Source: Fidelibacterota bacterium (lineage in GTDB: Bacteria > Fidelibacterota > Marinisomatia > Marinisomatales > JACNKV01). Taken from it: DNA of 57,541 nt. The DNA lies in the NCBI GenBank assembly GCA_014381855.1, contig JACNKV010000075.1, positions 1 to 57,541 of the forward strand. Direction: 5' to 3'. The notes beneath the pieces are model-generated. The model was not told the DNA's origin. It made no database searches and saw only the letters and a program-made list of their open reading frames with translations. Within the stretch, counting starts at the first letter, position 1, and each line of letters opens with the position of its first letter. Below are positions 3,261 to 21,815 of this stretch, one piece after another. Both the position numbers and the translations under genes were made by a program.

Positions 3261-3857
3261 TTATTTTGTATTGATTGTTTTTTCAGCTTTTTTTAAATCA
3301 TCTGATGTATTAATATTTAAAAATTCCGGCTCTGTTTTTGGCTGCATATTGATATATGCTGTCTTTATACCTTCGAGGATATGGCTAAGACGATAATGAT
3401 TTTGATTCAATGATTCACGGAAATGTGGCATTACAGTTGAGCGATAAAACGAACAAATAGGTTGTGGTATTTTTCGGATTATCGGGATAACAGCACCTAT
3501 ATTTGAACTTCTATTAATTGCCATGGATTGTATGGTCTCTATCCTAATTAGAGGAATATCACATGAAATTACAAATGACCACTCAGTATCACTATGGTTT
3601 AAAGCGGTAATAATACCGTTTAACGCACATTGAATCGGAAATTTATCTTCAATAAAAGGAAATGGATGCGATGATGAGTCCTTCCCTACAATAAATGTAT
3701 TCTTAGCGACAGTTGATATTTTATCGTAGAGAATTTCCGTAAGCGTTCGGTTATTTAACTTAGCGATACTCTTATCAGAAAAAAATCTCCGGCTCTGTCC
3801 TCCCATGAGAATATATGCATTGTAGGGTGTGTGATTTATCCTGGATATATCCATCAT
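3261..3857 (-). CDS. mobA: molybdenum cofactor guanylyltransferase (MobA-like NTP transferase)
   Basis: 198 aa. N-terminal 'YILMGGQSRRF' nucleotide-binding loop and a size typical of MobA. It is the last gene of the sensor kinase / regulator operon next to a bis-MGD enzyme cluster. Confidence 0.7.
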   Translation of the reverse strand: MMDISRINHTPYNAYILMGGQSRRFFSDKSIAKLNNRTLTEILYDKISTVAKNTFIVGKDSSSHPFPFIEDKFPIQCALNGIITALNHSDTEWSFVISCDIPLIRIETIQSMAINRSSNIGAVIPIIRKIPQPICSFYRSTVMPHFRESLNQNHYRLSHILEGIKTAYINMQPKTEPEFLNINTSDDLKKAEKTINTK

Positions 3858-3860
3858 TGC

Positions 3861-7153: not shown

Positions 7154-7246
7154 AATCGTTCCTTTTCTCTCATTGATTTTGTTTTATTTTAAACCTTTAC
7201 CAGCGAGTCAGTTTACATTTTATTAGGTATATAATACTACATAAAT

Positions 7247-7264
7247 CTGACCGTATATGGTCAG
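7247..7264. promoter_or_regulatory. palindromic candidate enhancer (UAS) for the sigma-54 activator
   Basis: CTGACC-GTATAT-GGTCAG has perfect 6-bp arms. An extra GGTCAG half-site lies at 7278-7283. The centre is about 105 bp upstream of the -24 element. Confidence 0.55.
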
Positions 7265-7358
7265 TCCGCCAACTCACGGTCAGCTTACTATTAACCGCAC
7301 TTATCGGCAATAACCCCTAACTGTAATTATAACGACACGTAAAAAGAACATTATATAT

Positions 7359-7374
7359 TGGCACAGTATTTGCT
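7359..7374 (+). promoter_or_regulatory. sigma-54 (-24/-12) promoter
   Basis: TGGCACAGTATTTGCT matches the TGGCAC-N5-TTGC consensus at every conserved position. It lies about 60 nt upstream of ATG 7433, and a sigma-54 activator is encoded divergently. Confidence 0.85.
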
Positions 7375-7432
7375 CATATATACTCGTTGTACGTACAACA
7401 CAAATAAACAGAAACTAAGGAGTTAAATAATA

Positions 7433-8812
7433 ATGAAGAAAACAATCATATCACTTCTGGCTTTTATCGTTCTGATCGGATCATTATCTGCAACAGAATT
7501 CAAAGTCGGTGGTGTGTATACAGCTTGGGCACAAAACCAACAAGCTTTCAATCTTGATGCAGATAATTACAACATGAATTATGTTGTTCAGATGCTCCGG
7601 TTTAAAGTACAAGGAATTGCAAGCGAAAATGTGAAGTTTGTAACCCGTTTTGATATGGCACAAGGTTGGTGGGGTGTTGACAATATGCTCCGCGGAGTCG
7701 AACGATGGGAAAAGACAGGCGCGAGTAGTCTGTTTGACTTTAAAGACTCTAACTATTTGATGCATGTTGATCAAGCTTACGTAGATTTTAACATGGATGT
7801 TTATCATAAAATCAATGTGAAAATCGGTCGTCAGTGGTTTGGTTTAGGAAACAAATTAATGGTAGACAACAACTACGATGGTATTCAGTTAAATGCCAAA
7901 GGACTAACTCTTGGTTGGGCAAAAGTATCTGAAGGCGCTGACAATACGACTGATGAAGGATTGCACAATGGTGATTCAGATCTATACTTAGCTAACTACA
8001 AAAAAGCTATTGGTAGTTTATCATTGAATGCTTTTGGGTTTTTGTACAAAGAAAACATCACAGATGAAGATCTTACTGCATATATTTTAGATGATCTTCA
8101 ATTCTTTAGAAATCGTGACGCTGCAACCGTTACTGAGTTAACTGCTTTCGGATTGTCCGGTACATATAAAGCTGGTGCTTTAACAGCTGATTTTGAATTT
8201 GATTATCTGACAGGTAAAGATGGTATCAATGACTTAGACCTCAGTGGTTATAATGCGTACACCAAGCTTGGGTACAAAATGAGTGATAAAATCAAACTTG
8301 GCGGTATCTTTGGAATGGGTTCCGGAGATGATGCATCTGAAGTTGGTTATACAAATGTAAATAAACTTCGCACATCCGGTTTCTTCTATATGACTGAAAT
8401 TTGGGAAGACTCCATTATGCCGGATGAAGAAGGTATTACTCCACAAGGTCTCGGTGCACCTAACGTAAGAGCCTATCGCGAGCTCGAAAACACAACCATC
8501 CTTCAAGGAAATGTTGATTTTAAAGTTTGTGATAAAACTTCAATCTTTTTATCAGGTAGTTATATCTTAGCATCAAATGAGATTAAAGAAGCTGATGGTG
8601 AAGGTAACTACTTTGCAGGTGAAACTGGCTCTACTGATCTTGGGACAGAAGTTGACTTTAGGATTAAACACGTGATTCAAAAAGGTTTATTCCTGATGCT
8701 TCGCGGTGGATACTTCATTCCTGGTGATGCAGCCGGTTATTTGATTAATGGTCATGCTAATGACATGGATCCGGCTTATGAACTTAAAGGAATGGTTGTC
8801 TATAAGTTCTAA
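7433..8812 (+). CDS. outer-membrane beta-barrel porin-like protein
   Basis: 459 aa with a signal peptide (MKKTIISLLAFIVLIGSLSA). Alternating amphipathic strand pattern rich in G/Y/D/N. C-terminal 'VVYKF' aromatic terminus typical of OM barrels. Confidence 0.6.
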   Translation: MKKTIISLLAFIVLIGSLSATEFKVGGVYTAWAQNQQAFNLDADNYNMNYVVQMLRFKVQGIASENVKFVTRFDMAQGWWGVDNMLRGVERWEKTGASSLFDFKDSNYLMHVDQAYVDFNMDVYHKINVKIGRQWFGLGNKLMVDNNYDGIQLNAKGLTLGWAKVSEGADNTTDEGLHNGDSDLYLANYKKAIGSLSLNAFGFLYKENITDEDLTAYILDDLQFFRNRDAATVTELTAFGLSGTYKAGALTADFEFDYLTGKDGINDLDLSGYNAYTKLGYKMSDKIKLGGIFGMGSGDDASEVGYTNVNKLRTSGFFYMTEIWEDSIMPDEEGITPQGLGAPNVRAYRELENTTILQGNVDFKVCDKTSIFLSGSYILASNEIKEADGEGNYFAGETGSTDLGTEVDFRIKHVIQKGLFLMLRGGYFIPGDAAGYLINGHANDMDPAYELKGMVVYKF

Positions 8813-8828
8813 TTGGTTTTGAAAAATC

Positions 8829-8854
8829 GCAAGGGTGGCAATCGTCACCCTTGC
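8829..8854 (+). terminator. stem-loop (partial terminator or attenuator) after the porin gene
   Basis: GCAAGGGTG-N8-CACCCTTGC forms a 9-bp GC-rich stem followed by TTATTT. It sits 20 nt before the next start codon. Confidence 0.55.
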
Positions 8855-8876
8855 TTATTTCAAAAAGGAAGATAAT

Positions 8877-9254
8877 ATGAAAAACAAAAAATATGTGGTG
8901 GTAATAAGTTGTGCTGTCTTGGGGATGATTATAGGCTTATGGTCATGTTGTAATCCACCTGCACTTCAGGTGCAATCCACCGAAATTCACGAAGATGTTG
9001 ACTTCAGCCTTGGTTGTACAGAATGCCATGAAGAAGAGACACCTGACATTTTTGAAGATTGGGCAATCAGTGGTCACGGAGCAATGAATTATGGCTGTTA
9101 TATTTGCCATGGAGATGGAACTATAGAATTTTATCCTGAGCCTTCAATTGATGGATGTACATCCTGTCACGAATCTGCTGCTGGACATTTAATGAGAGTA
9201 GAGAATGATGGTTGTTTCGAATGTCATGACGGTCACTCTCTTGAACCATATTAA
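8877..9254 (+). CDS. small tetraheme c-type cytochrome (NapM-like), probable lipoprotein
   Basis: Four CxxCH motifs (CTECH, CYICH, CTSCH, CFECH). Hydrophobic N-terminus ends in 'LWSCC'. ATG 8877 is preceded by AAAAGGAAG. The tracked GTG 8835 start would run through the hairpin. Confidence 0.8.
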   Translation: MKNKKYVVVISCAVLGMIIGLWSCCNPPALQVQSTEIHEDVDFSLGCTECHEEETPDIFEDWAISGHGAMNYGCYICHGDGTIEFYPEPSIDGCTSCHESAAGHLMRVENDGCFECHDGHSLEPY

Positions 9255-9265
9255 GGAGAATAATA

Positions 9266-11548
9266 ATGAATAAAAAACAAACACGTAGAGAATTTATTAA
9301 AGTTACCGCAGCTGCTTCAACAGCAGCAGGAATTGGCGTTACGCTATTTCCCGGAATGACTTTTGCTGATCAAAAAAGCGGCACCAACTGGCATAAATCA
9401 GTTTGCAGGTATTGCGGAGTCGGTTGTGGTGTTATGATTGGTGAAAAAGGTGGCAAAATCGTTAAAGTAAAAGGCGACGCTCAAAACACGATTAACAAAG
9501 GTCATCTTTGTGTGAAAGCATTTTATCTGCCAAAAGCAGTCAATGCTAAAACAAGGTTGCACCATCCTATGATTCGGAAAAACGGTAAATTGGTCAAAGC
9601 TTCTTGGGATGAAGCAATGAAACTGGTCGCAACCAAATTTAACGATATCCGAAAAAATCATGGCGGCAATGCATTGGCATTTTATGGTTCCGGGCAAGCT
9701 GAGACAGAAGAAACCTATATGGCAAACAAATTGTTCAAGGGCTGTATCGGTACCAACAATGTCGAAGGAAACCCAAGACTTTGTATGGCAAGTGCTGTGG
9801 GTGGATATTTGACTAGTTTAGGGGCTGATGAACCCGCCGGAACGTATGAAGACATCGAAAAAACAGAATTGTTTTTTCTTGCCGGTTCAAATACTGCTGA
9901 GGCACATCCCATTGTGTTTGAGCGAATCATGCGGCATAAAGCGATGAATCCGAATGTTAAAATAATCATTTTGGATCCACGTAAAACACCGACAGATCAA
10001 GTTGCTGATTTGCACCTCTTTCCTAAACCGGGATATGACTTAGCCGTTTTTAATGCAATGGCACATATCTTGATAAAAGAAGGATTTGCAGATGATGCCT
10101 TTATCAAGAATCATTTGTTCTTTAAGGATAATAAGAAAAACAAACATTCCTTTGAAGAATACAAAAAGTTCTTAGAGGACTATACTCCGGAGATAGCAGA
10201 AGAAATCAGTGGCGTTCCTGCAAAGGATATTGTCAAAGCAGCCCGGATGTTCGGTAAAGCCAAAACGGCTATGAGTATGTGGACAATGGGTTTAAATCAG
10301 CGTAAACGCGGAGTATGGGCAAACAATCTGGTTCATAACTTACATCTTATTACAGGTAAAATCGGTGTGCCTGGCAGTGATTCGTTTTCACTGACCGGAC
10401 AGCCAAATGCCTGCGGTGGTGTTCGTGAAGGTGGTGGTCTATGTCATCTGCTTCCTGGGCATCATCTTGTCGTAAAAGAAGCCCATCGTGAAAAGGTTGC
10501 AAAAGTTTGGGGAGTCCCCGCAAGCAACATTCAACCTAAACCGGGTAAACATACAATAGCAATGTTCTCAGCTTTAAATGCCGGAGAGATTAAAGGAATG
10601 TATATCATGTGTACAAATCCTGCTCAATCTCTGCCGAATGCGAAAAAATATTGGAAAGGCTTGAAAGAACAGTTTATTGTGGTGGCCGAATCATTCTTCC
10701 CAACGATGACTACTGAATATGCTGATGTTGTTTTACCAGCTTCATTCTGGACCGAAAAAGAAGGGGTTTACGGATGTACGGAAAGACGCTCTCAGTATAT
10801 GCCTCAAATCACTGATCCGCAAGGCGAAGCAAAGTGGGATGCCTTCATCCTTCGTGACCTTGGTAAAGAAATGGGATTCGAAAGGGAATTTGCCAAATAT
10901 GAAACGGCAGAAATCATGTGGGACGAATATCGAGGTCTTACAAAAGGCAAAGATATGAACCTGATGGGAGCCTCTTATAATCGTTTGAAAAAAGTCCGTG
11001 GATTAGTATGGCCAGTTCCGACTGAAAATCATCCTGGAACCTACAAACGTTTTACAGATGGTGATCCAATTTACGATGCTCTCCCGGCTGAAAAGAAAAA
11101 GGGTCGTCGGATGTATTTCTACGGACCAAAAGCAAAAGATGGAAGGGCAACCGTTTGGATGCGTCCTCATGACGGTCCCGGAGAACCAACGAGTGCAGAA
11201 TATCCGTTCGCATTAACCACAGGCCGAATCCTGGAACAATGGCATACGATGACCATGACCGGTACGTCCCCTCAACTTAATAGGTCAGTACCTCATGCTT
11301 ATGTAGAGATTAATCCTGCAGACGCACGGAGTAAGGGAATAACGAATAAAGATCAAGTCATCATAGAGACTCGCAGAGGTGAAATGCAGTTTGAAGCACG
11401 AGTGATTGACAGACCAATCCCGGGTACAATTTTTGTCCCTTGGCATTGGCCTGATAAACCGATCAATGTGCTATGCAGCGATATCTTTGATCCGGGCTCT
11501 AAAGAACCGGAATATAAAGTCGCAGCTGCGAGAATCAGGAAAGTCTGA
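9266..11548 (+). CDS. napA: periplasmic nitrate reductase catalytic subunit, monomeric type (bis-MGD molybdoenzyme)
   Basis: Tat signal 'TRREFIKVTAAAS'. 4Fe-4S motif 'CRYCGVGCGV...C'. Mo-ligand region 'RLCMASAVGGY' as in Nap/Nas enzymes. 760 aa, followed by NapD/G/H-like genes. Confidence 0.85.
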   Translation: MNKKQTRREFIKVTAAASTAAGIGVTLFPGMTFADQKSGTNWHKSVCRYCGVGCGVMIGEKGGKIVKVKGDAQNTINKGHLCVKAFYLPKAVNAKTRLHHPMIRKNGKLVKASWDEAMKLVATKFNDIRKNHGGNALAFYGSGQAETEETYMANKLFKGCIGTNNVEGNPRLCMASAVGGYLTSLGADEPAGTYEDIEKTELFFLAGSNTAEAHPIVFERIMRHKAMNPNVKIIILDPRKTPTDQVADLHLFPKPGYDLAVFNAMAHILIKEGFADDAFIKNHLFFKDNKKNKHSFEEYKKFLEDYTPEIAEEISGVPAKDIVKAARMFGKAKTAMSMWTMGLNQRKRGVWANNLVHNLHLITGKIGVPGSDSFSLTGQPNACGGVREGGGLCHLLPGHHLVVKEAHREKVAKVWGVPASNIQPKPGKHTIAMFSALNAGEIKGMYIMCTNPAQSLPNAKKYWKGLKEQFIVVAESFFPTMTTEYADVVLPASFWTEKEGVYGCTERRSQYMPQITDPQGEAKWDAFILRDLGKEMGFEREFAKYETAEIMWDEYRGLTKGKDMNLMGASYNRLKKVRGLVWPVPTENHPGTYKRFTDGDPIYDALPAEKKKGRRMYFYGPKAKDGRATVWMRPHDGPGEPTSAEYPFALTTGRILEQWHTMTMTGTSPQLNRSVPHAYVEINPADARSKGITNKDQVIIETRRGEMQFEARVIDRPIPGTIFVPWHWPDKPINVLCSDIFDPGSKEPEYKVAAARIRKV

Positions 11549-11740
11549 CAACAGGTAAACTGCAGGAGGTTATAACAAACCTCATTTAGAGGTTATCTTT
11601 GGTTGTTGTGCGATTAATCGTTAAATAATCTCCTGCAGGATTTTCCGAGTTTACCTTGTTAATATCTAATTAATAACTGCTGACATACCTACGACATAAT
11701 GAATACGGTGAGCGTGGTTATGTCAGTTAATGCGAAATAA

Positions 11741-12316
11741 ATGACATCAGCTGATCATATCTCTCGCAGTGAATTTTTTAGTTCATTCATTACAAAAATA
11801 AAAAGTAGTTATTCCGGGACAGCAAAAAAGATTAGTGTTGTGGGTGATGTAGTTTTCCCCCCGGGTGTAACCGGCATTGATCACTTTTTATCGACGTGCA
11901 ACCGATGCGATAAATGCGTTGCTGCGTGTCCGCATGAATCCATTCGCATCTTACACGGAGACGAGGCAAAGTACTCAGGATATCCGATTATCGACTCTCA
12001 AATTCAGCCATGCTTTTTTTGCGGTGATTTTCCCTGTATTAGCGTATGCGATACCGGAGCCCTGATTAAACAAAATAATATGAAAATTGGTGTTGCCGAG
12101 ATTATCACAGAAAATTGTCTGGCACACTCCGGTAATTTTTGTCAAAGCTGCATTAACAATTGTCCGTTAATTGGGAAGGCAATTTTCTGCGGTACAAACG
12201 GAAAGCCGGAAATAAATAAAGAAGTTTGTAACGGCTGCGGGATCTGTGTTCAGGTTTGTCCCGCTGAGCCCGTTGGAATTATCATTAAACAAACGAAGGA
12301 ACTACCATGCCAATAG
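11741..12316 (+). CDS. napF: NapF-like poly-ferredoxin (4Fe-4S clusters)
   Basis: 191 aa with four Cys cluster motifs: 'CNRCDKCVAACP', 'CFFCGDFPCISVC', 'C..C..C...CP' and 'CNGCGICVQVCP'. A 'PPGV' motif precedes the first cluster. Confidence 0.65.
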   Translation: MTSADHISRSEFFSSFITKIKSSYSGTAKKISVVGDVVFPPGVTGIDHFLSTCNRCDKCVAACPHESIRILHGDEAKYSGYPIIDSQIQPCFFCGDFPCISVCDTGALIKQNNMKIGVAEIITENCLAHSGNFCQSCINNCPLIGKAIFCGTNGKPEINKEVCNGCGICVQVCPAEPVGIIIKQTKELPCQ

Positions 12317-12564
12317 CAGGTGTATTAATCTTAACCCAGCCAGAATTATCTGATAATGCGCTGGTAAAATTAAATAAAATGAACAAGGTTACTACCTACG
12401 GTATTCATAAAGAAAATTATATTATTGCCGTACTGGAGGGTAATTCCATATCCGAACTGGAGACCATTACCAATTCAATAACAAGCAAAATACCCGGTGT
12501 TATTGGGGTCTATCCGTCTTACGTGAATTATGAGGAAATAGAAACACAGGAATCCACAGAATAA
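12307..12564 (+). CDS. napD: NapD-like Tat-signal chaperone
   Basis: 85 aa. NapD-like pattern 'IAGVLILTQPE...IIAVLEG.S..E....I.....GVIGV'. Its position next to napA is typical. Confidence 0.75.
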   Translation: MPIAGVLILTQPELSDNALVKLNKMNKVTTYGIHKENYIIAVLEGNSISELETITNSITSKIPGVIGVYPSYVNYEEIETQESTE

Positions 12565-12576
12565 GGGTCTTTGTAA

Positions 12577-13092
12577 ATGTGGGATAACTGGTTAAACAAA
12601 TTAGCAGATTTAAGAGATCCTCTTAGACCTCCCGGTGCCGTTGAAGAAGATGAATTTCTTCAAAAATGTATCCGTTGCCGTAAGTGCGAAGAAGTGTGTC
12701 CTTTTGAATCTATCAAATCTGCGCATGGAGAATGGGGATTAAAAATGGGATCCCCGATTATTCACCCCAGAGATACTCCTTGTTATCTATGTGAAGATTT
12801 TCCTTGCATTGAATCTTGTCCAACGGAAGCTCTTGAGCCCATCAAGTCAAAAAATGATGTTAAAATGGGTATTGCTGTGATCGACAAAACACTCTGCTTT
12901 GCTTATAACGATATTCTGTGCCGCGCGTGTTTTGAGCGATGTCCAATACATAGAGAAGCGATAACGATGAAAGATGAATTATATCCGGTAGTAGATGAAA
13001 ATAAATGTGTCGGTTGCGGAATCTGTGAATATGTATGTCCTACTGAACAACCTGCCATTACTATCATTAGTTCACACAAGGTTGGCGGTTAA
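12577..13092 (+). CDS. napG: NapG-like poly-ferredoxin (4x 4Fe-4S)
   Basis: 171 aa. 'LRPPGA' motif, then 'CIRCRKCEEVCP', 'CYLCEDFPCIESCP', 'C..LCRACFERCP' and 'CVGCGICEYVCP'. Clear paralog of the 11741 gene. Confidence 0.7.
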   Translation: MWDNWLNKLADLRDPLRPPGAVEEDEFLQKCIRCRKCEEVCPFESIKSAHGEWGLKMGSPIIHPRDTPCYLCEDFPCIESCPTEALEPIKSKNDVKMGIAVIDKTLCFAYNDILCRACFERCPIHREAITMKDELYPVVDENKCVGCGICEYVCPTEQPAITIISSHKVGG

Positions 13093-13095
13093 AAT

Positions 13096-13944
13096 ATGAA
13101 GAAATTTGAAAAGTATCTAAATGACCATCTTCATATTTTAAGAAGGATGATGCAAGTGGGCACAGTTCTTTTTATTATCGCAGTTCCGTTACTGAATAAA
13201 ATAGGATATCATGGCGTAAACGGAACCTTTTACAGTTTAAGTATAGGTGAATTGAATATTGTAGACCCGGCTCTGGCATTGCAAACCATTCTACTGACAA
13301 AAAGTATATATCTACCATTAATTTTGGCAATTGTTTTGCCAATTCTTCTTGCTATGTTTCTTGGGAAAGTATTTTGCAGCTGGATGTGTCCTTATAATTT
13401 CCTCGCAGAGTTTACAGAAAAGTTTAGGAAACTAATCAAGCCGGTAGAAAAACAGAAAAATACGAATCCTAGCCCTCAATATTACTGGATAATTTTTGGA
13501 ATAATCCTGGTACTTTTAATGATTACCGGCATTCCGGTCATTACGTTGATTTCTATGCCAGGATTAATCACCTCTCAAATAGCAGATGGAATTCTCTACA
13601 ATGTTGTAGGTATCGAAATATTACTGATAGCATTGCTTTTAATCTTAGAAGTCTTTGTTGCACCAAGATTCTGGTGCAAATATGCTTGTCCGGTTGGAGC
13701 AACTTTATCCTTGGTTAAAACAAAATATGCACTCAAGATAAAATACAGCGCGAAAAGTTGTGCAGAATGTAAAGAAATTAAAGAAAATCCATGCAATCAA
13801 GTCTGTCCTTTGCAATTAAATCCTAAATCTGTGAAAATATATCCTTACTGTAATAACTGTTTTGAATGCATCACAACCTGTAATGATGTTGGCTGTCGTG
13901 CATTAAAAATTACTTTTCAACCATTGAAAACGAATAAACCATAA
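13096..13944 (+). CDS. napH: NapH-like membrane quinol-dehydrogenase Fe-S subunit
   Basis: 282 aa with four predicted TM helices. Two CxxxCP motifs ('CSWMCP', 'CKYACP'). C-terminal ferredoxin-type Cys clusters. Confidence 0.75.
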   Translation: MKKFEKYLNDHLHILRRMMQVGTVLFIIAVPLLNKIGYHGVNGTFYSLSIGELNIVDPALALQTILLTKSIYLPLILAIVLPILLAMFLGKVFCSWMCPYNFLAEFTEKFRKLIKPVEKQKNTNPSPQYYWIIFGIILVLLMITGIPVITLISMPGLITSQIADGILYNVVGIEILLIALLLILEVFVAPRFWCKYACPVGATLSLVKTKYALKIKYSAKSCAECKEIKENPCNQVCPLQLNPKSVKIYPYCNNCFECITTCNDVGCRALKITFQPLKTNKP

Positions 13945-13959
13945 GGAGGAAGAATCTAT

Positions 13960-14427
13960 ATGGTAAAGAAAAAGAAAGTGAAACTTAATAGAAGAGAGTT
14001 TTTCAAAAAGACCGGTTACCTTGGCATAATAGCCTTGGGTATTGGAGCTTTTTTGAAAAATATCTTCTTATATATCTCACCAGAACAGAAAGAAAAGACC
14101 TACCACAAGTATCTTGTTGGGAAGAAAAATCAAATACTTCCGGGTAAGGCAAAAGAGATCACCATTCAAGGTAAACCGGTGTTTGTTGTAAACCAAGGAA
14201 CGGAATTCAAAGTGTTTTCCGGTGTTTGCACACACCTTGGATGCATTATCAAATGGGAAGAAAACAACGACGGTTTTTATTGTCCGTGTCATCAAGGATT
14301 TTTTGATAAATCCGGACGTGTTGTCTCTGGTCCGCCACCGACACCGCTAACAGAATTCCCAGTTGTAGAAGAGAAGAACCTAATCTACATCCAGGTGGAA
14401 GATAAAAAGAAAGGACCCTGGGCATGA
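13960..14427 (+). CDS. Rieske 2Fe-2S protein (Tat-anchored)
   Basis: 'NRREFFKKTG' twin-arginine region plus a TM helix. Rieske boxes 'CTHLGC' and 'CPCHQG'. Confidence 0.88.
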   Translation: MVKKKKVKLNRREFFKKTGYLGIIALGIGAFLKNIFLYISPEQKEKTYHKYLVGKKNQILPGKAKEITIQGKPVFVVNQGTEFKVFSGVCTHLGCIIKWEENNDGFYCPCHQGFFDKSGRVVSGPPPTPLTEFPVVEEKNLIYIQVEDKKKGPWA

Positions 14428-15458
14428 GTACTACATGGACAAAGACACGCATCCCCATTGACGGTGGGAAAATAAAAGAAGCGATGTTTGGTGAGAAAAT
14501 TCCACTCCATATGAAGAATTGGGTTCTCGCAATGGGTACAACACCATTCATTTTGTTCCCATTACAAATTATCACCGGAATATTACTGGCATTATATTTT
14601 GTCCCTTCTGTGGAAATGGCTTACGAAAGTGTCCGGCATATTTCGCAGGATATTCGATATGGATTTTGGATACGAGGTATTCATCACTGGGGAGCAAATC
14701 TGATGGTCATTTCTCTATTTCTCCATATGATGCGAGTGTTTTTCACTCATTCATACAGAAAGCCACGAGAAATCAATTGGGTATTTGGATTCCTATTGCT
14801 GTCTCTGACATTGACAATCTCGTTTACCGGTTATTCTTTAACCTATAATCAGGTGTCTTATTGGGCTGCAACAGTCGGAACAAATCTTGTTAAGGAAATC
14901 CCATTAATCGGAGGATTTGTGCTCAGCCTTCTACGAGGAAGTGAAGGGGTTACGGCTCATACACTAACCAGGTTTTACACGTTGCATGTGTGGATATTGC
15001 CTGTAGTGATATCACTTATCATCGGTGCACATATCTTTTTAGTTCGGTCGCACGGTGTATCAGAACCTGATGGATTTGAAAAAGGTCACTACGATTTCTA
15101 TCCTGGACATTTCTACAAAATTATTGTTGTAACACTGTTCCTGATTTCGTTATTGAGTTTACTGTCTGTGGTCTTACCACCTGGACTTGGTGAACAGGCA
15201 GACCCGGCGAACACCCCGCTTCACATTAAACCTGAGTGGTATTTCTTCCCTGTGTTTTTGATTTTACGATTTGTCCCGTTACAACTTGGATTAGCCATCA
15301 CAGGACTGGCAATTGTTTTGATGATATTCTGGCCATTCATTGAGCCGATGTTATCAAAGAAGAAAAAATCACGCACAGTCATAGCAAACATCATTGGATG
15401 TATCGCGATTGTCATCTTAATTACACTTACAATCTTTGAAGCATTTTCAATCATTTAA
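14424..15458 (+). CDS. cytochrome b (b6 plus subunit-IV-like fusion) of a Rieske/cyt b complex
   Basis: 344 aa and polytopic. 'RGIHHWGANLM' and 'FYTLHVWILP' heme-ligand helices. 'PEWYF' motif as in the cyt b/b6f Qo region. ATGA overlap with the Rieske gene. Confidence 0.88.
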   Translation: MSTTWTKTRIPIDGGKIKEAMFGEKIPLHMKNWVLAMGTTPFILFPLQIITGILLALYFVPSVEMAYESVRHISQDIRYGFWIRGIHHWGANLMVISLFLHMMRVFFTHSYRKPREINWVFGFLLLSLTLTISFTGYSLTYNQVSYWAATVGTNLVKEIPLIGGFVLSLLRGSEGVTAHTLTRFYTLHVWILPVVISLIIGAHIFLVRSHGVSEPDGFEKGHYDFYPGHFYKIIVVTLFLISLLSLLSVVLPPGLGEQADPANTPLHIKPEWYFFPVFLILRFVPLQLGLAITGLAIVLMIFWPFIEPMLSKKKKSRTVIANIIGCIAIVILITLTIFEAFSII

Positions 15459-15476
15459 TAAGAAAGAGGAATAACA

Positions 15477-17090
15477 ATGGAAAATAAAAACATAACACAA
15501 TGGTTAATCGGCGTCTTTAGTCTTGTCATGATCGTTTCTTTGATGATCGTAGCCGGTTATGAAGTAAATAAAACAAAAGAACAAGGGCATGAGATTGACG
15601 TTGACAAAGTATCTGCCCGTTGTATCACGTGCCATGAAAAAGAAAACATTGCTGTGAAGCAAATTCACGCATGGGAAGAAAGTGAACATGCATTAATGGG
15701 CATCGGCTGCAACGAATGTCATGAAGCAAAAGAAGGCGATTTTGATGCCTTTTACTGCGAAAACAGCGATATGCTTGTCGGTCGTCATCCTACTCCAAAA
15801 GACTGTGAGGAATGCCACGATCAGGAAGTAAAAGAATTTGCGAACAGTAAACATGCCCATCAGTTCTGGCTTTTTGCTAATGCGGATAGGGCGACATTTG
15901 AAAATCCAATTTCTACCAGACATGGATGTGAACAATGCCACCAAATTGGGAATTTATGGCCTGACGGTAGTGTCGGAGAATGTGACGCTTGCCATTCCAA
16001 ACATTCATTCGATTTAGCAGTTGCACGTCAACCTGAAACATGCGGAGAATGCCACATTGGACCTGACCATCCCCATATTGAGATTTACAATGAATCTAAA
16101 CACGGAAATATTTTCAAAGCCAAAGGCAGCGATTGGGCCATGGATTATCATACAGACAACTTTGAACCCATCCCAATTGAAGCTCCGGTTTGTGCCACCT
16201 GCCATATGGATGGGAACGAAACACAACCCATGACACACGACGTCAGTGCTCGTTTGGCGTGGGAGTCTCAGTCTCCGTGGAGTTATAGAACTGTTTGGGA
16301 TGAAGAAAACCTTGGTAGCTGGGATATGAAACGTGGTCGCATGGAATCAATCTGCCAGAGTTGCCATGCACCTGATTTTGTTGATACATATTTGTTAACA
16401 GCTGATTTAGTCAATCTTCAGTATAATGAAATGCGAAGAAACTTTGTTTATTGGACAAAGAAATTGACCAATAATGGGACGATAGATCGGTTGAAAGCAA
16501 ATGGTGAATTTAAATCCAATCCTGTCCTCAATGGATGGGACGAAACACCGGAGCATGAAATGTATTATGCCTGGCATCATGAAGGTCGACGTTTTCGTCA
16601 TGGAGCTGAAATGATGGGAGCAGATTTCACCCAATGGCACGGCGTCTGGGAACTCCAAGAAGATATGGTTGAATTAATTACTTGGGCCGCAGAACATGGG
16701 GACCATGAAGCAGAAAAATGGGTTATTTCTAATCATCCTTCCAAGTTTGTTCCGTATGCACTTTACGACATCCCGGGCAATGCATGGGGTATTGGGGCAA
16801 AAACAAATACCACTCCGTTTGTTTATAACGAATACTCAGATTATTGGGATCGGGTCAAGGCAAATGTGAAGACAGCCTATGAGAAAGGACTGCTTACAAA
16901 AGATCAGTGGAATCTGTGGATGGATCGATACGAAAATAAGGACCATTATCTTGGATTAAAATATGCAAATGATCCTAAAGTCGTAGAAAAATGGGATTTC
17001 TACAAAGAACGTAATGCCATTGATACAAAGGCTTTCAAAGAACAAGCTGTTCAATTAAAGTTACCCGGAAAGCCCTTCTACACTAAATAA
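15477..17090 (+). CDS. membrane-anchored octaheme c-type cytochrome, hydroxylamine-oxidoreductase (HAO) family-like
   Basis: Eight CxxCH motifs (CITCH, CNECH, CEECH, CEQCH, CDACH, CGECH, CATCH, CQSCH). HAO-like segment 'CGECHIGPDHPHIEIYNESKHG'. N-terminal TM helix. Confidence 0.75.
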   Translation: MENKNITQWLIGVFSLVMIVSLMIVAGYEVNKTKEQGHEIDVDKVSARCITCHEKENIAVKQIHAWEESEHALMGIGCNECHEAKEGDFDAFYCENSDMLVGRHPTPKDCEECHDQEVKEFANSKHAHQFWLFANADRATFENPISTRHGCEQCHQIGNLWPDGSVGECDACHSKHSFDLAVARQPETCGECHIGPDHPHIEIYNESKHGNIFKAKGSDWAMDYHTDNFEPIPIEAPVCATCHMDGNETQPMTHDVSARLAWESQSPWSYRTVWDEENLGSWDMKRGRMESICQSCHAPDFVDTYLLTADLVNLQYNEMRRNFVYWTKKLTNNGTIDRLKANGEFKSNPVLNGWDETPEHEMYYAWHHEGRRFRHGAEMMGADFTQWHGVWELQEDMVELITWAAEHGDHEAEKWVISNHPSKFVPYALYDIPGNAWGIGAKTNTTPFVYNEYSDYWDRVKANVKTAYEKGLLTKDQWNLWMDRYENKDHYLGLKYANDPKVVEKWDFYKERNAIDTKAFKEQAVQLKLPGKPFYTK

Positions 17091-17149
17091 TTATTGTAGT
17101 GTTCAATTGAACGACTATGGTAATTTATACCGCTAAATAAAATAGAAGT

Positions 17150-17177
17150 GTTGGGGTTGTCAATTGGCAGCCCCAAC
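17150..17177. terminator. GC-rich hairpin after the octaheme cytochrome gene
   Basis: GTTGGGGTTG-N8-CAGCCCCAAC forms a 10-bp stem with one G-U pair. No T-tract follows on the + strand, so its terminator function is uncertain. Confidence 0.4.
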
Positions 17178-17180
17178 AAA

Positions 17181-17280
17181 ACTCCGAGTTCGACAACCTG
17201 TCCTCGTGTGAGCATGGTTTAGAACCGATAGGGTGGAGTTGGAAACGGCTTCGCCTCCCGCGCTTGGAAAGGAGCACATA
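17181..17280 (+). promoter_or_regulatory. candidate Moco (molybdenum cofactor) riboswitch, translational OFF type
   Basis: P1 pairs CUCC (17182-85) with GGAG (17271-74), sequestering the SD AAAGGAG. Internal helices are 17185-88/17203-06, 17216-26 and 17232-38/17249-55. The 3' core CUUCGCCUCCCGCGCUUGGAAAGGAG resembles the E. coli moaA Moco motif as I remember it; this was not computed. Confidence 0.6.
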
Positions 17281-19548
17281 ATGAAATACATACAAAAAAT
17301 ATCCTTAATTATATTATTCATCTTGTCGTATACATTCTGCAACACCGAAATATCCGGGATTGTAAGAGACGAACACAATAATCGACTGCTTGAGGGATGC
17401 AATATTACCCTGGAGGGTACGAAAATTGGTGTCACCACAAATCAATCCGGACACTATTGTTTCAACGATGTCGAACCGGGGATGTATACTCTTTGTGCAG
17501 AGTATATCGGTTACATAACCACCGTAGAAACTATTCAGGTAAATATAGACCAAACTTTGAATATTGACTTCTGCCTATCTCCTACTGTAATCAAAGGAAA
17601 TGAAGTGGTGGTCACTGCAACAAGAACAGAGCATAGATTAGTGGATATCCCCGGAAGAATAGATGTGGTTACACACGCTGAGTTAAATAGTCTGCCTACC
17701 CAAAATCTAGATGACATTCTAAAATACTTATCGGGTCTTAATGTCCATCGAACTTCAGGGATATTTGAGATCAGACCGGTTGTAAGTTTGCGCGGAGTTT
17801 CAGGAGATGAACCGGGAAGAACTTTGGTGTTAGTCAACAGCACTCCAATTAATAAATCTGATACTGGAGTGGCAAACTGGAACAGAATCAATGTAGCAAA
17901 TATAAAACAAATTGAAATCTTCAAAGGCGCCGGTTCATCTCTGTACGGGAATAACGCCATGGGAGGAGTGATAAATATTATCACTCAAACTCCAGATGAC
18001 AATTTTAGCGGAAAGGCTCATGCTTCATACGGAACCTATAATACATTGAGTGGAAACCAATATATTTCAGGCCGGAAGAATGCTTATTATTATAATTTTG
18101 GTTGGTTCACACGCAAAAGCGATGGGTATTATGACCTTCCTGATAGTTTACAGGATGACTATTCAGTCCCGCTATTTCTAGATGAAAAAGGGATATCAAC
18201 TACAGTAGGATTTAATTTTACTCCTAATAATACTTTTGAAATCATTTATGATTATTACGACGATAAACGAGGTGAAGGTGTAAAAATCGAAGAAAAAGAC
18301 GGAAAGCATCGCAGCTTCGATACAAATATGTTACAAGTAAAATTAACTGGGAAAAATAAAAAGTCCAGATACGAAATAAACGGATTTTATCAACATGAGA
18401 ATTATTTAAGAGTAAGTGAAGATTTTAAAAATGGCTCATATTATAAATTTGATGTCGCTTCAAACCGAATTGATAGAGGGGTGTTATTTAATTATACTCG
18501 TGATATAGGTAGCTATCATTTAATCACTGTTGGCTCAGAATTGAAATCCGGGAGTGTCGATGGTGGTGATTATTATGCCACGCCTGACACCACCCCGCGT
18601 GATACGGTTTTAAATCGTGGTAAAATGCAATTCAGAACATTATATCTGCAGGATGAGTTCAATCTTTTTGGCAACAAACTGCGGTTTGTTGCCGGAATCC
18701 GATATGATAATGTAAAATTCCATCAGGGATATTTCCATGCCAACCTGGAATCAAATCCTTTCTATTCTTACAATGGTCATCTTGATGAAAATGAGTGGAA
18801 TGCAATGAGTCCAAGAGTAGCCGTGAAATATCATTTTGGAAACCAAATGAGTGGTTATCTTTCTTACTCTCAAGGTTTCCGTGCTTCGATACTTGACGAT
18901 TTATGTCGTTCGGGGTGGATGCGGCTTGGACCGAAAGAAGCCAATCCAGACCTAGGTCCCGAAACAATAGACAGTTATGAACTTGGGTTAGATTATTCAC
19001 CGACTTCAAATGTAAAAATATCCCCTTCATTCTATTTTTCGAAAGGACACGATTTTCTATATTTTGTTGCTACCGGTGATTCACTTTGGGGTAGAAAGCC
19101 CATCTACAGAAGAGAAAATATAACCGGAGTTGATATTTATGGTGCTGAAATCGATTTTACATTCAGACCAAATCATAATATTTCGCTTCATGGTAATTAT
19201 TCGTATAATCACTCGACAATATTTGAATTTTCTAAAAACCCGGAATTGGAGGAAAACTATTTAGTTTACTCCCCTATTCATCAAGCCAATGCAACAATGC
19301 AGTGGAGGAACAAGTATTTAAACATTAATTTTGGAATTAACTATAAAGATAAACAATTCACTAACGATGATAATTCTGAAGAATTGGCTGCATATTATAC
19401 CATAGATGCCCAGCTGTCAAAAGTACTGTATAAAAAAGTCAACATAGCCATCGATTTTCAGAATATTACAGATATAAGACAGACAGAACATTTAGAAAGG
19501 CTTTCCCCTGGAAGATTAATCAATTTGATGCTATCATACGATTGGTAG
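17281..19548 (+). CDS. TonB-dependent receptor with N-terminal CarboxypepD_reg-like domain
   Basis: Signal peptide MKYIQKISLIILFILSYTFC. Plug domain ('VVVTATRTEH', 'IEIFKGAGSSLYGNNAMGGVINIIT'). Long beta-barrel ending in 'LSYDW'. The tracked GTG 17233 start lies inside the leader RNA structure. Confidence 0.9.
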   Translation: MKYIQKISLIILFILSYTFCNTEISGIVRDEHNNRLLEGCNITLEGTKIGVTTNQSGHYCFNDVEPGMYTLCAEYIGYITTVETIQVNIDQTLNIDFCLSPTVIKGNEVVVTATRTEHRLVDIPGRIDVVTHAELNSLPTQNLDDILKYLSGLNVHRTSGIFEIRPVVSLRGVSGDEPGRTLVLVNSTPINKSDTGVANWNRINVANIKQIEIFKGAGSSLYGNNAMGGVINIITQTPDDNFSGKAHASYGTYNTLSGNQYISGRKNAYYYNFGWFTRKSDGYYDLPDSLQDDYSVPLFLDEKGISTTVGFNFTPNNTFEIIYDYYDDKRGEGVKIEEKDGKHRSFDTNMLQVKLTGKNKKSRYEINGFYQHENYLRVSEDFKNGSYYKFDVASNRIDRGVLFNYTRDIGSYHLITVGSELKSGSVDGGDYYATPDTTPRDTVLNRGKMQFRTLYLQDEFNLFGNKLRFVAGIRYDNVKFHQGYFHANLESNPFYSYNGHLDENEWNAMSPRVAVKYHFGNQMSGYLSYSQGFRASILDDLCRSGWMRLGPKEANPDLGPETIDSYELGLDYSPTSNVKISPSFYFSKGHDFLYFVATGDSLWGRKPIYRRENITGVDIYGAEIDFTFRPNHNISLHGNYSYNHSTIFEFSKNPELEENYLVYSPIHQANATMQWRNKYLNINFGINYKDKQFTNDDNSEELAAYYTIDAQLSKVLYKKVNIAIDFQNITDIRQTEHLERLSPGRLINLMLSYDW

Positions 19549-19559
19549 GAAATTTGTAA

Positions 19560-20141
19560 ATGAGTCTACAAAAATATTTCACAAGAACAATACTGATGGG
19601 AACAATCTGGGGTTTAGTTGAAGTCTTTTTATCCCCAATCATAAAAAGTATTACACCACACTTATTTAGTGTAATCATGCCATCTATTGCAATTGTAATC
19701 ATTTTAATCGGGCGATATTTCGTTCCATATTTTGGTTCAACCATTTCAATGGGAATTATTGCTGCGTTTGTCGAATATATGCTCGGCGGGATGTTACTTG
19801 ACGGCGCATTTATGGCTATCATTTTAGAAGCTGTATTCTGTGAGTTGATTCTGTCAGTTGTTGGTTTCAATTTATGGTCATTTGTATTATCGTGCATTAC
19901 CATCCTTGACTATAGTGTTTTACATCCGTTAATCAAAAAAGGTGTTTCCTGTCAATCCATGCAACATATCTTTGTAAAGAACCTATTACACACATTGTTT
20001 ATTGTTGACAAATCTGTATTAACTGCTGTAGATATCACATTTATACTGTTGGCTTTTCATACTATAATTGGTATGTTTCTAGGCTTTCTGTTTTATTTCT
20101 TATTTCAGAAGATTTCCATAACAGAAAAGGAATTCGCATGA
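19560..20141 (+). CDS. small polytopic membrane protein, unknown family (paralog 1)
   Basis: 193 aa with about 5-6 hydrophobic helices. Shares 'GT.WGL.E..L.S', 'II.LI.R', 'GST' and 'IAA' blocks with the next gene. Confidence 0.7.
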   Translation: MSLQKYFTRTILMGTIWGLVEVFLSPIIKSITPHLFSVIMPSIAIVIILIGRYFVPYFGSTISMGIIAAFVEYMLGGMLLDGAFMAIILEAVFCELILSVVGFNLWSFVLSCITILDYSVLHPLIKKGVSCQSMQHIFVKNLLHTLFIVDKSVLTAVDITFILLAFHTIIGMFLGFLFYFLFQKISITEKEFA

Positions 20142-20713
20142 CCAAAACCTCCATCGCATACACCGCTGTTTTTGGAACACTTTGGGGGTTAGCTGAAGCC
20201 ACGCTTGGTTCGGTAATGCACTTGATAAATCTACCCTTATCCGGATCTGTGCTTTCAACAGTTGGGATGATCATCGTCCTAATCGCCAGAGGAGTCAACC
20301 CCCAACGCGGAAGCACGTTGATGATGGCATTAATTGCAGCCATGATAAAAATAATGAGTTTTGCAACTGTAAAACTTGGCCCTTTTGTCGGGATATTGCT
20401 GGAAGGCGTAATGCTGGAAATGATTCTCACAATATTTTCACCAAATTTTCTGGGATTCATGCTATCTGGGATTATTGTTTCAGTCTATCCGCTCATTCAG
20501 ACGCTCACGGTAAAAACAATTCTATTCGGAGCAGATTTTATTCCGGTTATTCTCGAAATGGCGGAGGGTTTTTCACATCGCATCGGTTTTGGAGCAGGAT
20601 GGTGGATTTTGGGTCTTTATGTGTCCATTCACTTTGTTTTCGGAGTCGGGGGAGCTTTATTTGCATGGCTCATAAAATCGCAACTTAACAAGAAAATAAT
20701 TAATGAATCTTAA
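20138..20713 (+). CDS. small polytopic membrane protein, unknown family (paralog 2)
   Basis: 191 aa. ATGA overlap with paralog 1. Same conserved blocks ('GTLWGLAEATLGS', 'IIVLIARG', 'GSTLMMALIAAM'). Confidence 0.7.
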   Translation: MTKTSIAYTAVFGTLWGLAEATLGSVMHLINLPLSGSVLSTVGMIIVLIARGVNPQRGSTLMMALIAAMIKIMSFATVKLGPFVGILLEGVMLEMILTIFSPNFLGFMLSGIIVSVYPLIQTLTVKTILFGADFIPVILEMAEGFSHRIGFGAGWWILGLYVSIHFVFGVGGALFAWLIKSQLNKKIINES

Positions 20714-21815
20714 ATCCCTAATAACATCGTTGCGGCTTGGGGTCTCTCTGCTCATATTCATCGGAGTCTTTTTCCTGCAAATAAGTCCCGTCGGAATCAC
20801 ATGTCTTATTTTCATTATTGCATGGATATACAATCACAATACGGTACGTCCATTAAAACGAATACCGTTTTGGGTCACCATCGGAATATTGGTGATTGCC
20901 GTTCCGATTTTCACAGGGATTCAAGATAAAACATTCTTAACAATAACGTATAGCAGTGTTCAATTATCAAAAACAATGCTGATGGCATTTAGGGGAATTT
21001 CTGTCTTCCTTCTTTTTCAGGTGATAACAATAAACCTGAACAGCGAAAAAGTTACAGCGCTATTTACAAAACTTGGCTTCAGCAATTTTAATTCTGTTTA
21101 CACTTTATCGAATAAAACCATGCCGCATCTCCGCAGCATTTTGTCTGCACGTGTTACGGAGCTTCGTGTTGAATGGAAGGCTCATCATCAACTCAAAAGT
21201 GTATTCGATTTTATTATTTTAGTATTACGAGATTTAATCCGATTGGCGGAATCTTTGGGGAGCGACACATCCGGCAACGAAAAAATCACACCTTTGGATT
21301 TCATTCAAGCACGCAAGAATGTAAACCCACCTTCATTAACCGTTATTACCGGTGAATCGGGAACGGGGAAATCCAGATGGTTAGCAAGTTTGGTGACTTG
21401 CCTGAACAGTGCCGGTAATAATGTGGACGGAATTATCTCAGAAAAACATCGAATCTCTGACAGCGATTGGCATCATAACCTTCTGCGAATAGAGACAGGA
21501 GAAAAGTGGCAATTAAATACGATGAGCAATTTTGATACGCACATCCATGTCGGCAAGTTTTTCTTTTACCCGGATGTCATCGAATGGGGTTGTAATCAAT
21601 TAATCGAATCCATCGATGCAAACTATCTGATTATTGACGAAATTGGAATTTTAGAATTTAATGGGGAGGGGTTTCTACCGGCGTTAAAAATAATCGATGA
21701 TAACTTTCAAGGATACCTTATCATCACAATTCGTCGTCAATTAATGAATCAACTGGACATATTTTTAAAAAGTCATCTTCCGACAATCAGCAAGTGGAAA
21801 AGAACAACCGTCTGA
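20703..21815 (+). CDS. fusion protein: EcfT/CbiQ-like membrane domain plus THEP1/DUF2478-like P-loop NTPase
   Basis: 370 aa. The N-terminal ~190 aa has 4-5 TM helices and an EcfT-like coupling segment 'LFTKLGF...MPHLRSILSAR'. The C-terminal domain has Walker A 'GESGTGKS' and Walker B 'LIIDEIGILEFNGEGF'. No ABC signature (LSGGQ) is present. 11-nt overlap with the upstream gene. Confidence 0.6.
   Translation: MNLKSLITSLRLGVSLLIFIGVFFLQISPVGITCLIFIIAWIYNHNTVRPLKRIPFWVTIGILVIAVPIFTGIQDKTFLTITYSSVQLSKTMLMAFRGISVFLLFQVITINLNSEKVTALFTKLGFSNFNSVYTLSNKTMPHLRSILSARVTELRVEWKAHHQLKSVFDFIILVLRDLIRLAESLGSDTSGNEKITPLDFIQARKNVNPPSLTVITGESGTGKSRWLASLVTCLNSAGNNVDGIISEKHRISDSDWHHNLLRIETGEKWQLNTMSNFDTHIHVGKFFFYPDVIEWGCNQLIESIDANYLIIDEIGILEFNGEGFLPALKIIDDNFQGYLIITIRRQLMNQLDIFLKSHLPTISKWKRTTV

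Follow-up and report, generated by a model that had tools for sequence, protein, structure and literature searches.

Members of riboswitch family RF01055, the aptamer for the molybdenum cofactor (Moco) or the tungsten cofactor (Tuco), were split by Regulski et al. 2008 into P3-containing and P3-less RNAs (58/176), and the P3-less RNAs were proposed to sense Tuco; the proposal came from genomic correlation, with tungsten-related genes in 17/19 organisms that carry P3-less RNAs, and exceptions were listed with no biochemical proof (PMC2408646). Two types of expression platform, terminators and Shine-Dalgarno sequestration, are known for the family, and in the P3-containing moaA leader of E. coli the Shine-Dalgarno element is sequestered in P1 (PMC2408646). 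The published P3-less RNAs, among them those of Syntrophomonas, Moorella and Pelobacter, accompany genes for molybdopterin synthesis, tungsten enzymes and oxyanion ATP-binding cassette (ABC) transporters in Firmicutes and delta-proteobacteria (PMC2408646). A third set of relevant systems comprises the cobalamin-btuB and thiamine pyrophosphate (TPP)-TonB receptor operons of Caldithrix and Bacteroides, where a cofactor riboswitch shuts off a receptor encoded with an inner-membrane uptake component; the Caldithrix genome has B12- and TPP-controlled receptors, and its Moco motif precedes a major facilitator superfamily transporter (PMC5317091). The locus described here is an RF01055 member that precedes a TonB-dependent receptor gene in contig JACNKV010000075.1 of the Fidelibacterota bacterium assembly GCA_014381855.1 (57,541 nucleotides, analysed as a whole and called the window below). 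It is very likely a functional P3-less Moco/Tuco riboswitch that acts as an OFF switch on the receptor and on memA, a small membrane-protein gene that follows it, the two gene products presumably forming a two-membrane molybdenum or tungsten uptake route for the nitrate reductase NapA.

Comparison with the E. coli moaA riboswitch shows the same P1, P2, P4 and P5 helices, a GAAA tetraloop on P4, the CCUCCC...GGAAAGG core and near-identical 3' halves, as well as a ribosome-binding site in the P1 3' strand, which predicts a translational OFF switch. The window RNA differs in lacking P3, in being placed to control an outer-membrane TonB-dependent receptor rather than a Moco biosynthesis operon, and in its host, an uncultured and probably FCB-group bacterium rather than a gamma-proteobacterium. 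The published P3-less RNAs likewise lack P3 and share the same core and both the terminator and the Shine-Dalgarno platforms, whereas here the setting is a NapA island and a TonB receptor, and in most members of the window clade the P5 loop is enlarged by a covarying hairpin. The cobalamin and TPP systems belong to other riboswitch families with other ligands, and their cargo is the sensed cofactor, while here it is more probably a metal. Neither TonB or outer-membrane genes nor organisms of the Bacteroidetes group are named by Regulski et al. 2008 (PMC2408646), and such genes are likewise missing from a comparative RNA-regulon study. An initial annotation of this DNA, made by a model from the letters alone, had stated that it knew of no Moco riboswitch controlling a TonB-dependent receptor; no published link of this kind was found in the literature either, an earlier mention, for example in a database annotation, being possible. 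The RNA itself is thus known in its family, its P3-less subtype and its platform types, and it is only for the regulated gene that no record was found.

The complete window was scanned on both strands against all 4227 Rfam families, and a single match was returned, to RF01055 at 17170-17290 (+). The match scores 70.4 bits against a gathering threshold of 36 (E 5.3e-15) and spans model positions 1-135 of 135 without truncation. The initial annotation had called a Moco riboswitch here and had proposed the covariance-model search as its check; the call is upheld at nearly twice the gathering score. In the model alignment, all conserved core blocks (CCGAG, AGGG, the GAAA tetraloop, CCUCCC and GGAAAGG) are intact, and the window copy has the top RF01055 score among the seven copies scored with Rfam. 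The leader combines a score above threshold with P1, P2, P4 and P5, GAAA on P4, the core nucleotides and covariation; it also stands where a leader of this family is expected, with a NapA cluster on its 5' side, mobA in or beside the operon in relatives, and an uptake-type receptor on its 3' side. On these tests, 17170-17290 is a genuine P3-less member of RF01055. The E. coli moaA 33-mer quoted for comparison in the initial annotation proved exact, being 100% identical in 5425 E. coli genomes, where it is annotated as 'riboswitch' and 'moaA'.

The P1 helix pairs CUCC (17182-17185) with GGAG (17271-17274), and this 3' strand is at the same time a Shine-Dalgarno-like element that ends 6 nt before the ATG at 17281 and constitutes the expression platform; the coordinates and the spacing given in the initial annotation were read correctly from the sequence. 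According to the model alignment, P2 (17188-17225) is formed by a 5' strand at 17188-17198 and a 3' strand at 17216-17225 with an internal bulge, and it encloses a small hairpin, P2a (CCUC 17202-17205 with GAGC 17210-17213). P4 (17231-17241 with 17246-17256) is capped by the GAAA tetraloop at 17242-17245, and the minimum free energy fold of the single sequence agrees with this hairpin. P5 (17257-17267) pairs CC 17257-17258 with GG 17266-17267 across a short 7-nt loop. CCU 17254-17256 of the P4 3' strand together with P5 makes up the conserved CCUCCC core, and P5 leads into the conserved GGAAAGG at 17266-17272. All these elements lie on the + strand. The P3 stem is deleted, with model positions 59-75 gone and just the five nucleotides CGAUA (17226-17230) left between P2 and P4. 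According to Regulski et al. 2008 (PMC2408646), the bulge of P2 in Moco-motif RNAs holds a tetraloop receptor. At the aligned positions of this bulge, the window has CCUGU...CAUGG where the model consensus, the only sequence compared, has CCUAAG...UAUGG.

Four helices had been proposed from the letters, and the model alignment retains two of them. CUCC/GGAG is P1, and GGUGGAG (17232-17238) does face CUUCGCC (17249-17255) with two G-U pairs, as the core of P4. CGAG/CUCG is not a conserved pairing: CGAG 17185-17188 comprises the end of P1, the J1/2 junction and the first base of P2, and CUCG 17203-17206 belongs to P2a. The GGUU-UAG-AACC hairpin at 17216-17226 is really the P2 3' strand, whose partner is GUUCGACAACC at 17188-17198. 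The U-G and G-U changes in P4, described as compensatory, are only one-sided relative to E. coli.

Homologous-receptor loci were fetched, 80 from genomes and 80 from metagenomes (the receptor itself has hundreds of homologues), and were scanned with Rfam and with R1, a custom clade covariance model built from the first Rfam matches. A same-strand aptamer lies directly 5' of the orthologous receptor in 15 loci, namely the window, L001-L005, L011, L081-L085, L091, L130 and L170. The expectation that the same leader would recur before orthologous receptor genes is therefore satisfied in 14 further loci. The other 74 genome and 73 metagenome receptor loci, mostly of Bacteroidales, gave no R1 match at default filters, and Rfam agreed in five of these. 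The riboswitch-linked receptors group as a single clade, apart from the other homologues, when a neighbour-joining tree is built. Labels of metagenome-assembled genomes within this clade include Neomarinimicrobiota and 'Marinimicrobia'; membership of the FCB group is also suggested by Type IX secretion-tail domains encoded in adjacent genes. P3 is absent in all five copies for which RF01055 alignments were printed (the window, L002, L004, L005 and L011), and its absence in the remaining copies follows from their full-length matches to the P3-less model R1. R1 also gave a weak second match within the window, at 2933-3019 (+) in a hemerythrin open reading frame (13 bits, E 0.69), where Rfam is silent; this was judged to be a chance match.

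Covariation was assessed in A8, which aligns 14 copies with 12 distinct sequences, every copy except the later discovery L170. Model-based alignments were preferred to MAFFT, which misplaced the 3' end of the window copy among seven copies; A8 had itself been fitted to the covariance model, a condition under which its values are to be read. In A8, 92.1% of cells are paired, a share that drops to 34-47% once the 3' partner is shifted by 1-3 columns, and compensatory, both-sided changes occur at 23/36 pairs as against 6-11 after the shift; none of 500 shuffles attained the observed covariation values. The consensus helices therefore covary strongly, as the initial annotation had required of them. 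The inner four pairs of P1 hold in 12/12 distinct sequences, with compensatory changes at two of these pairs. Of the 11 pairs of P2, 9 are changed on both sides, and 98.4% of cells are paired. P4 has compensatory changes at 7/11 pairs with 92.4% of cells paired.

The P5 loop of L002-L005 and L011 contains an insertion of 20-25 nt that forms a covarying hairpin; the window and L001 are without it. The hairpin has 4 bp, with the compensatory pairs CAGG/CCUG, CGGG/CCCG and CCCU/GGGG, and is treated by the Rfam model as an insertion. It is found in most clade members (L002-L005, L011, L081-L085, L091, L130 and L170; for example at 5866-5892 in L004). Owing to this insertion, the strict pattern CCUCCC...GGAAAGG found no match in 80 related loci. 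The aptamer of L001, the closest relative (5890-6010), scores 49.9 bits with RF01055 and 27 bits with the clade model. Its invariant core carries substitutions, CCUCCC having become CUUCAC, and two further changes weaken P4; these may reflect decay of the switch in that lineage or an assembly error.

The aptamers are followed by two kinds of expression platform. A strong hairpin with a U-tract lies 40-70 nt past the aptamer in L002, L003, L004 and L005 (z -3.4 to -6.0), as an intrinsic terminator. In L002, the terminator 5' arm is complementary to the UUGGAAAGGAG segment used by the folded aptamer (-17.5 kcal/mol, 0/500 shuffles), and the same complementarity is seen in L004 (-12.9 kcal/mol, 4/500 shuffles); it is weaker in L003 (30/500 shuffles), and there is none in L005. 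The layout of L002 and L004 resembles classic anti-terminator logic, by which ligand binding would allow the terminator to form and turn the gene off. In the window and L001, which have no terminator, the Shine-Dalgarno-like element 6 nt from the ATG is the P1 3' strand GGAG. The burial of this element by the closing helix, as pictured in the initial annotation, fits the arrangement described for E. coli moaA (PMC2408646). For the terminator and Shine-Dalgarno designs alike, the predicted direction of regulation is OFF, and the presence of two distinct OFF platforms on one orthologous gene is good evidence for a working regulator.

On the 5' side, the aptamer is preceded by a nitrate-respiration cluster (7433-17090, +). 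Its order is a porin-like gene, a small cytochrome c, NapA (9266-11548, +), Fe-S proteins, NapD, Rieske, cytochrome b and a 537-aa multihaem cytochrome (15477-17090, +). The cluster is transcribed divergently from genes for a histidine kinase, a sigma-54 response regulator and the Moco guanylyltransferase mobA (3261-3857, -), which stands at the far end of the island. The genomic context had been described correctly beforehand, with the NapA cluster 5', mobA at the other end and the TonB-dependent receptor 3'. The multihaem gene is directly 5' of the riboswitch in all 14 loci with upstream sequence, and NapA is found 5' of the riboswitch wherever enough upstream sequence was fetched. The gap between the multihaem stop codon and P1 is 10-29 nt in L003, L004, L005 and L011, and 12 nt in L170; it widens to 61 nt in L002 and, in L001 and the window, to 87-89 nt. 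Because the short spacer leaves little room for a promoter, the riboswitch of most members presumably lies inside the nap-cytochrome transcript and decides read-through into the receptor gene. Within 10-29 nt of the preceding stop codon, such a riboswitch would be the conditional end of one operon and the conditional start of the next.

The longer spacer of the window holds an 11-bp hairpin at 17151-17176 (UUGGGGUUGUC AAUU GGCAGCCCCAA) just 5' of P1, which is kept in L001, where one U-G pair has become U-A. Lacking a U-tract, it is no obvious terminator and could be a processing site or a 3' stabiliser of the nap transcript. Across full-length copies (L001-L005 and L011), the multihaem cytochrome is 74-95% identical, as against 44-85% for the receptor. 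It has weak similarity to the hydroxylamine/hydrazine oxidoreductase family, and the Rieske-cytochrome b-multihaem segment (13960-17090) suggests a nitrate-to-ammonium respiratory module.

On the 3' side, four + strand genes are tightly packed, with an 11-nt gap or small overlaps. The 755-aa TonB-dependent receptor (17281-19548) has a signal peptide followed by CarboxypepD_reg, plug and barrel domains (PF13715, PF07715 and PF00593). The memA gene (19560-20141) starts 11 nt past the receptor stop and encodes a 193-aa membrane protein with no Pfam match and a fold like that of the S components of energy-coupling factor (ECF) transporters. The memB gene (20138-20713), whose product of about 190 aa likewise has no Pfam match, is a memA paralogue (26-34% identity) and the usual partner of the overlapping gene that follows it, TM-NTPase (20703-21815), whose 370-aa product combines an N-terminal membrane domain with a THEP1-type NTPase (PF03266; PDB 1YE8, E 8e-10). 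The memA protein is 41-58% identical to its receptor-linked orthologues and memB is 52-67% identical to the TM-NTPase-linked membrane gene of L161, L163 and L165; memA and memB are classed on these comparisons as distinct orthologous groups. A memA orthologue follows the receptor in nine loci (the window, L001, L003, L005, L081, L082, L085, L170 and L171), and a memA-like gene followed by a mobA-like gene is also present in L172. The riboswitch-receptor operon of L004 includes mobA, as does that of L003, where mobA comes after memA; in L011 and L084 the receptor is followed by a periplasmic binding protein from the sulfate/molybdate superfamily, and in L002 nothing further follows it.

The distribution of the remaining pair differs. 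A memB-type gene with TM-NTPase stands in L161 and L165 at the opposite end of the nap island, the place taken by mobA in the window, and in L163 together with the genes that flank the island in the window but without the island. No Moco motif was found at the memB/TM-NTPase loci of other genomes (L161, L163 and L165) with either Rfam or model R1. Assignment of memB and TM-NTPase to the core regulon was consequently rejected, since the pair occurs elsewhere without the motif and belongs to the backbone beside the nap island. The core regulon is probably the receptor with memA, and memB and TM-NTPase are probably co-transcribed neighbours.

A word-indexed search gave three relatives of memA, and an exhaustive profile search of a 1.8-billion-protein library gave 632 family members, some of them fused to TM-NTPase. 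The neighbourhoods of more distant members were uninformative, their contigs being too short. The AlphaFold model of memA reached a pLDDT of 95.2 with 71 sequences (61 in an earlier run with 4 sequences). Its best Foldseek match in the PDB is YkoE, entry 5EDL, with TM scores of 0.65/0.64 over the full length (probability 1.00, E 0.15), and a profile search against PDB sequences gave a weak match to the same entry (E 0.81). The predicted structure of memA agrees with that of an S component, a class of small integral membrane proteins with about 6 helices. Near memA and memB, however, the genes encode neither a CbiQ/EcfT nor an ABC_tran domain; the partner there is a membrane domain fused to a THEP1-type NTPase, and the two proteins are therefore called S-component-like rather than ECF components. 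ECF S components typically bind organic cofactors (vitamins, precursors) or Ni/Co.

The memB and TM-NTPase genes (20138-21815; also P0204 and P0301) form a conserved combination of an S-component-like protein, a second membrane domain and a THEP1/DUF2478-type P-loop NTPase. In some organisms they are fused into single proteins of 570-620 aa, and their membrane parts have no Pfam family. This module could be an ECF-like transporter with an unconventional ATPase.

The closest receptors outside the riboswitch-linked clade provide a clue to the cargo. Three such homologues (L167, L168 and L169) all lie in receptor/Peripla_BP_2/FecCD/ABC ATPase/TrmO-FmdE operons, which are preceded by a NikR-like regulator in L167 and L169 and by a convergent gene in L168. 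Judged by these gene sets, the operons of the non-clade homologues are of the type that takes up metals or metal chelates. No other non-clade homologues are nearer than their receptors (42-46% identity), and two of the three examined have the same N-terminal layout, the third being without CarboxypepD_reg. They differ from the window clade in their control by a protein repressor (NikR-like), in their inner-membrane partners and in their separate branch of the tree. The Bacteroidota operon itself (L167-L169) is strikingly conserved, and it includes a TrmO_N+FmdE fusion protein that is puzzling in a metal-uptake setting. The cargo of the window receptor is most likely molybdenum or tungsten, or a complex of either, imported when the cofactor is short. 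This is the simplest reading of a receptor clade of metal type in which a Moco-class riboswitch has taken the place of a metal-sensing repressor and whose members accompany NapA and mobA.

In the proposed mechanism, plentiful pterin cofactor would bind the aptamer and lock P1, and the locked helix would hide the GGAG that ends 6 nt from the AUG, so that initiation of receptor translation would be blocked. When the cofactor is short, P1 would open and allow synthesis of the receptor and, probably, of the products of the closely spaced memA, memB and TM-NTPase genes. In L002-L005, which are four of the five distinct genome relatives, the same OFF logic would be exerted by the intrinsic terminator after the aptamer, and the riboswitch appears to decide whether transcription reads on from the nitrate-respiration operon into the receptor gene. 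In the uptake route, the receptor would span the outer membrane and the S-component-like memA the inner one, and what they carry would be a molybdenum (or tungsten) source for loading NapA, in the form of an oxyanion or a metal complex, a pterin precursor being less likely. Observed directly are the membership of the RNA in its family, its conservation and covariation, both platform types, the synteny and the fold of memA; ligand identity, direction of regulation and transported substrate are predicted.

The points that weigh against a working switch at this position begin with the single-sequence folding energy of the leader, which is not better than that of shuffles (z = -0.67); the case for a riboswitch rests on family membership and comparative data, not on thermodynamics. 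An unremarkable folding energy is also what a chance resemblance to the Moco motif would produce. The probability of such a coincidence is negligible, given E 5e-15 against all of Rfam and conservation with compensatory changes at the orthologous position in 14 other loci, and the idea is already refuted by the Rfam match, the matches in relatives and the covariation. It is further to be considered that the GGAG is conserved for aptamer reasons, so that spacing is what speaks for its ribosome-binding role, and that Shine-Dalgarno use in this lineage looks variable. The control and ligand response of the clade members are predictions from their sequences. Both features of its relatives, the terminator and the P5-loop hairpin, have been lost from the window copy, and the core of L001, its sister copy, is altered and scores 49.9 bits (27 with the clade model); the window/L001 sub-lineage may be relaxing control. 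Taken to its end, this line of thought would make the window element a decaying relic that no longer regulates. That outcome has a slim chance at best, as the window copy keeps all core blocks, its 70.4 bits are the highest of the seven Rfam-scored copies, and the position of its GGAG relative to the ATG follows the arrangement of the functional E. coli moaA riboswitch.

The ligand and the cargo are open to two other readings, and here too part of the evidence runs counter to a molybdenum supply for NapA. The P3-less subtype label points to Tuco, whereas the NapA and mobA context fits Moco better, and the choice is uncertain from the sequences at hand. An aptamer specific for Tuco would place the receptor operon in the service of tungsten acquisition or of tungsten/molybdenum discrimination rather than of NapA. 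P3 is indeed missing from all 15 copies, and 17/19 organisms with P3-less RNAs carry tungsten-related genes (PMC2408646). The link between P3 and Tuco is, however, a correlation with acknowledged exceptions that has never been demonstrated biochemically (PMC2408646). The copies adjoin a NapA-type periplasmic nitrate reductase, with mobA in or beside the operon, and neither the 57.5-kb window nor the short flanks of the relatives showed a tungsten enzyme or a tungstate-transporter (tup or wtp) gene. Nap enzymes are molybdenum bis-molybdopterin guanine dinucleotide enzymes. To our knowledge, direct ligand binding is unproven even for the E. coli RNA, the ligand being unstable. A Tuco-specific aptamer is accordingly rated as rather improbable.

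Alternatively, the riboswitch may be real and the cargo different: a pterin or Moco precursor taken up for salvage, or another metal of the respiratory cluster such as Ni or Fe. The resemblance of memA to YkoE, an S component for a thiamine precursor, and the NikR linkage of the nearest non-clade receptor homologues would suit such a cargo, and B12 and TPP riboswitches are generally known to control receptors for the cofactor itself (Caldithrix examples, PMC5317091). On the other hand, control by a Moco-class riboswitch makes a Ni or Fe cargo illogical, and the riboswitch-linked receptors form a separate clade whose partner genes differ. Salvage from the environment is unlikely, given the extreme lability of Moco and its precursors. 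A cargo of this kind is therefore doubtful. Uptake of molybdenum or tungsten has its own difficulties. No modABC, tupABC or wtpABC is present in the 57.5-kb window. The periplasmic binding protein encoded 330 nt downstream in L011 resembles sulfate-binding proteins, which lends weak support to an oxyanion cargo; its assignment as ModA, TupA or WtpA was rejected, the best matches being sulfate-binding proteins. The occurrence of memB and TM-NTPase without any riboswitch also implies that their presence in this operon may be an accident of island insertion.

Few guides to what a transporter does are as reliable as riboswitch regulons, and a switch before one receptor clade amounts to a testable prediction of outer-membrane molybdenum/tungsten passage, for which no dedicated receptor was found in the literature searched. 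Nor did that search find any work on TonB-dependent molybdenum or tungsten uptake, or on DUF2478 or FmdE function in this context. A more far-reaching suggestion, offered tentatively and at somewhat less than even odds, is that the receptor and memA constitute an unrecognised TonB-dependent route for molybdenum (or tungsten, as an oxyanion or metallophore complex) across both membranes, wired to nitrate respiration by a P3-less switch, with the corollary that P3-less aptamers would not be tungsten-specific. Because these RNAs accompany a Nap-type nitrate reductase and mobA, they are a counter-example to, or a test case for, Tuco sensing by P3-less RNAs. The locus also gives a first functional context to an unannotated S-component-like membrane-protein family with 632 representatives in the 1.8-billion-protein library. 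The element is unremarkable as a riboswitch, but its regulon offers a useful lead, conserved and testable, to TonB-dependent molybdenum/tungsten uptake.

A second TonB-dependent receptor of the window, at 34218-36395 (-), has the same domain layout, with an N-terminal region just 28% identical to that of the first and no RNA family match nearby. Within the window, the block from mobA to the receptor is flanked on one side by genes for a HEAT protein, pyrimidine-nucleoside phosphorylase and hemerythrin, and on the other by the membrane gene with TM-NTPase, rpiB, transketolase and later genes. Both flanks are syntenic with L163, which is without the complete mobA-nap-cytochrome-receptor block (window 3261-19548). 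In L161 and L165, the mobA-nap-receptor block adjoins the membrane gene and TM-NTPase with its orientation reversed relative to the window. On this comparison of gene orders, the block from mobA to the receptor behaves like a movable nitrate-respiration island of ~16 kb with a preferred neighbour.

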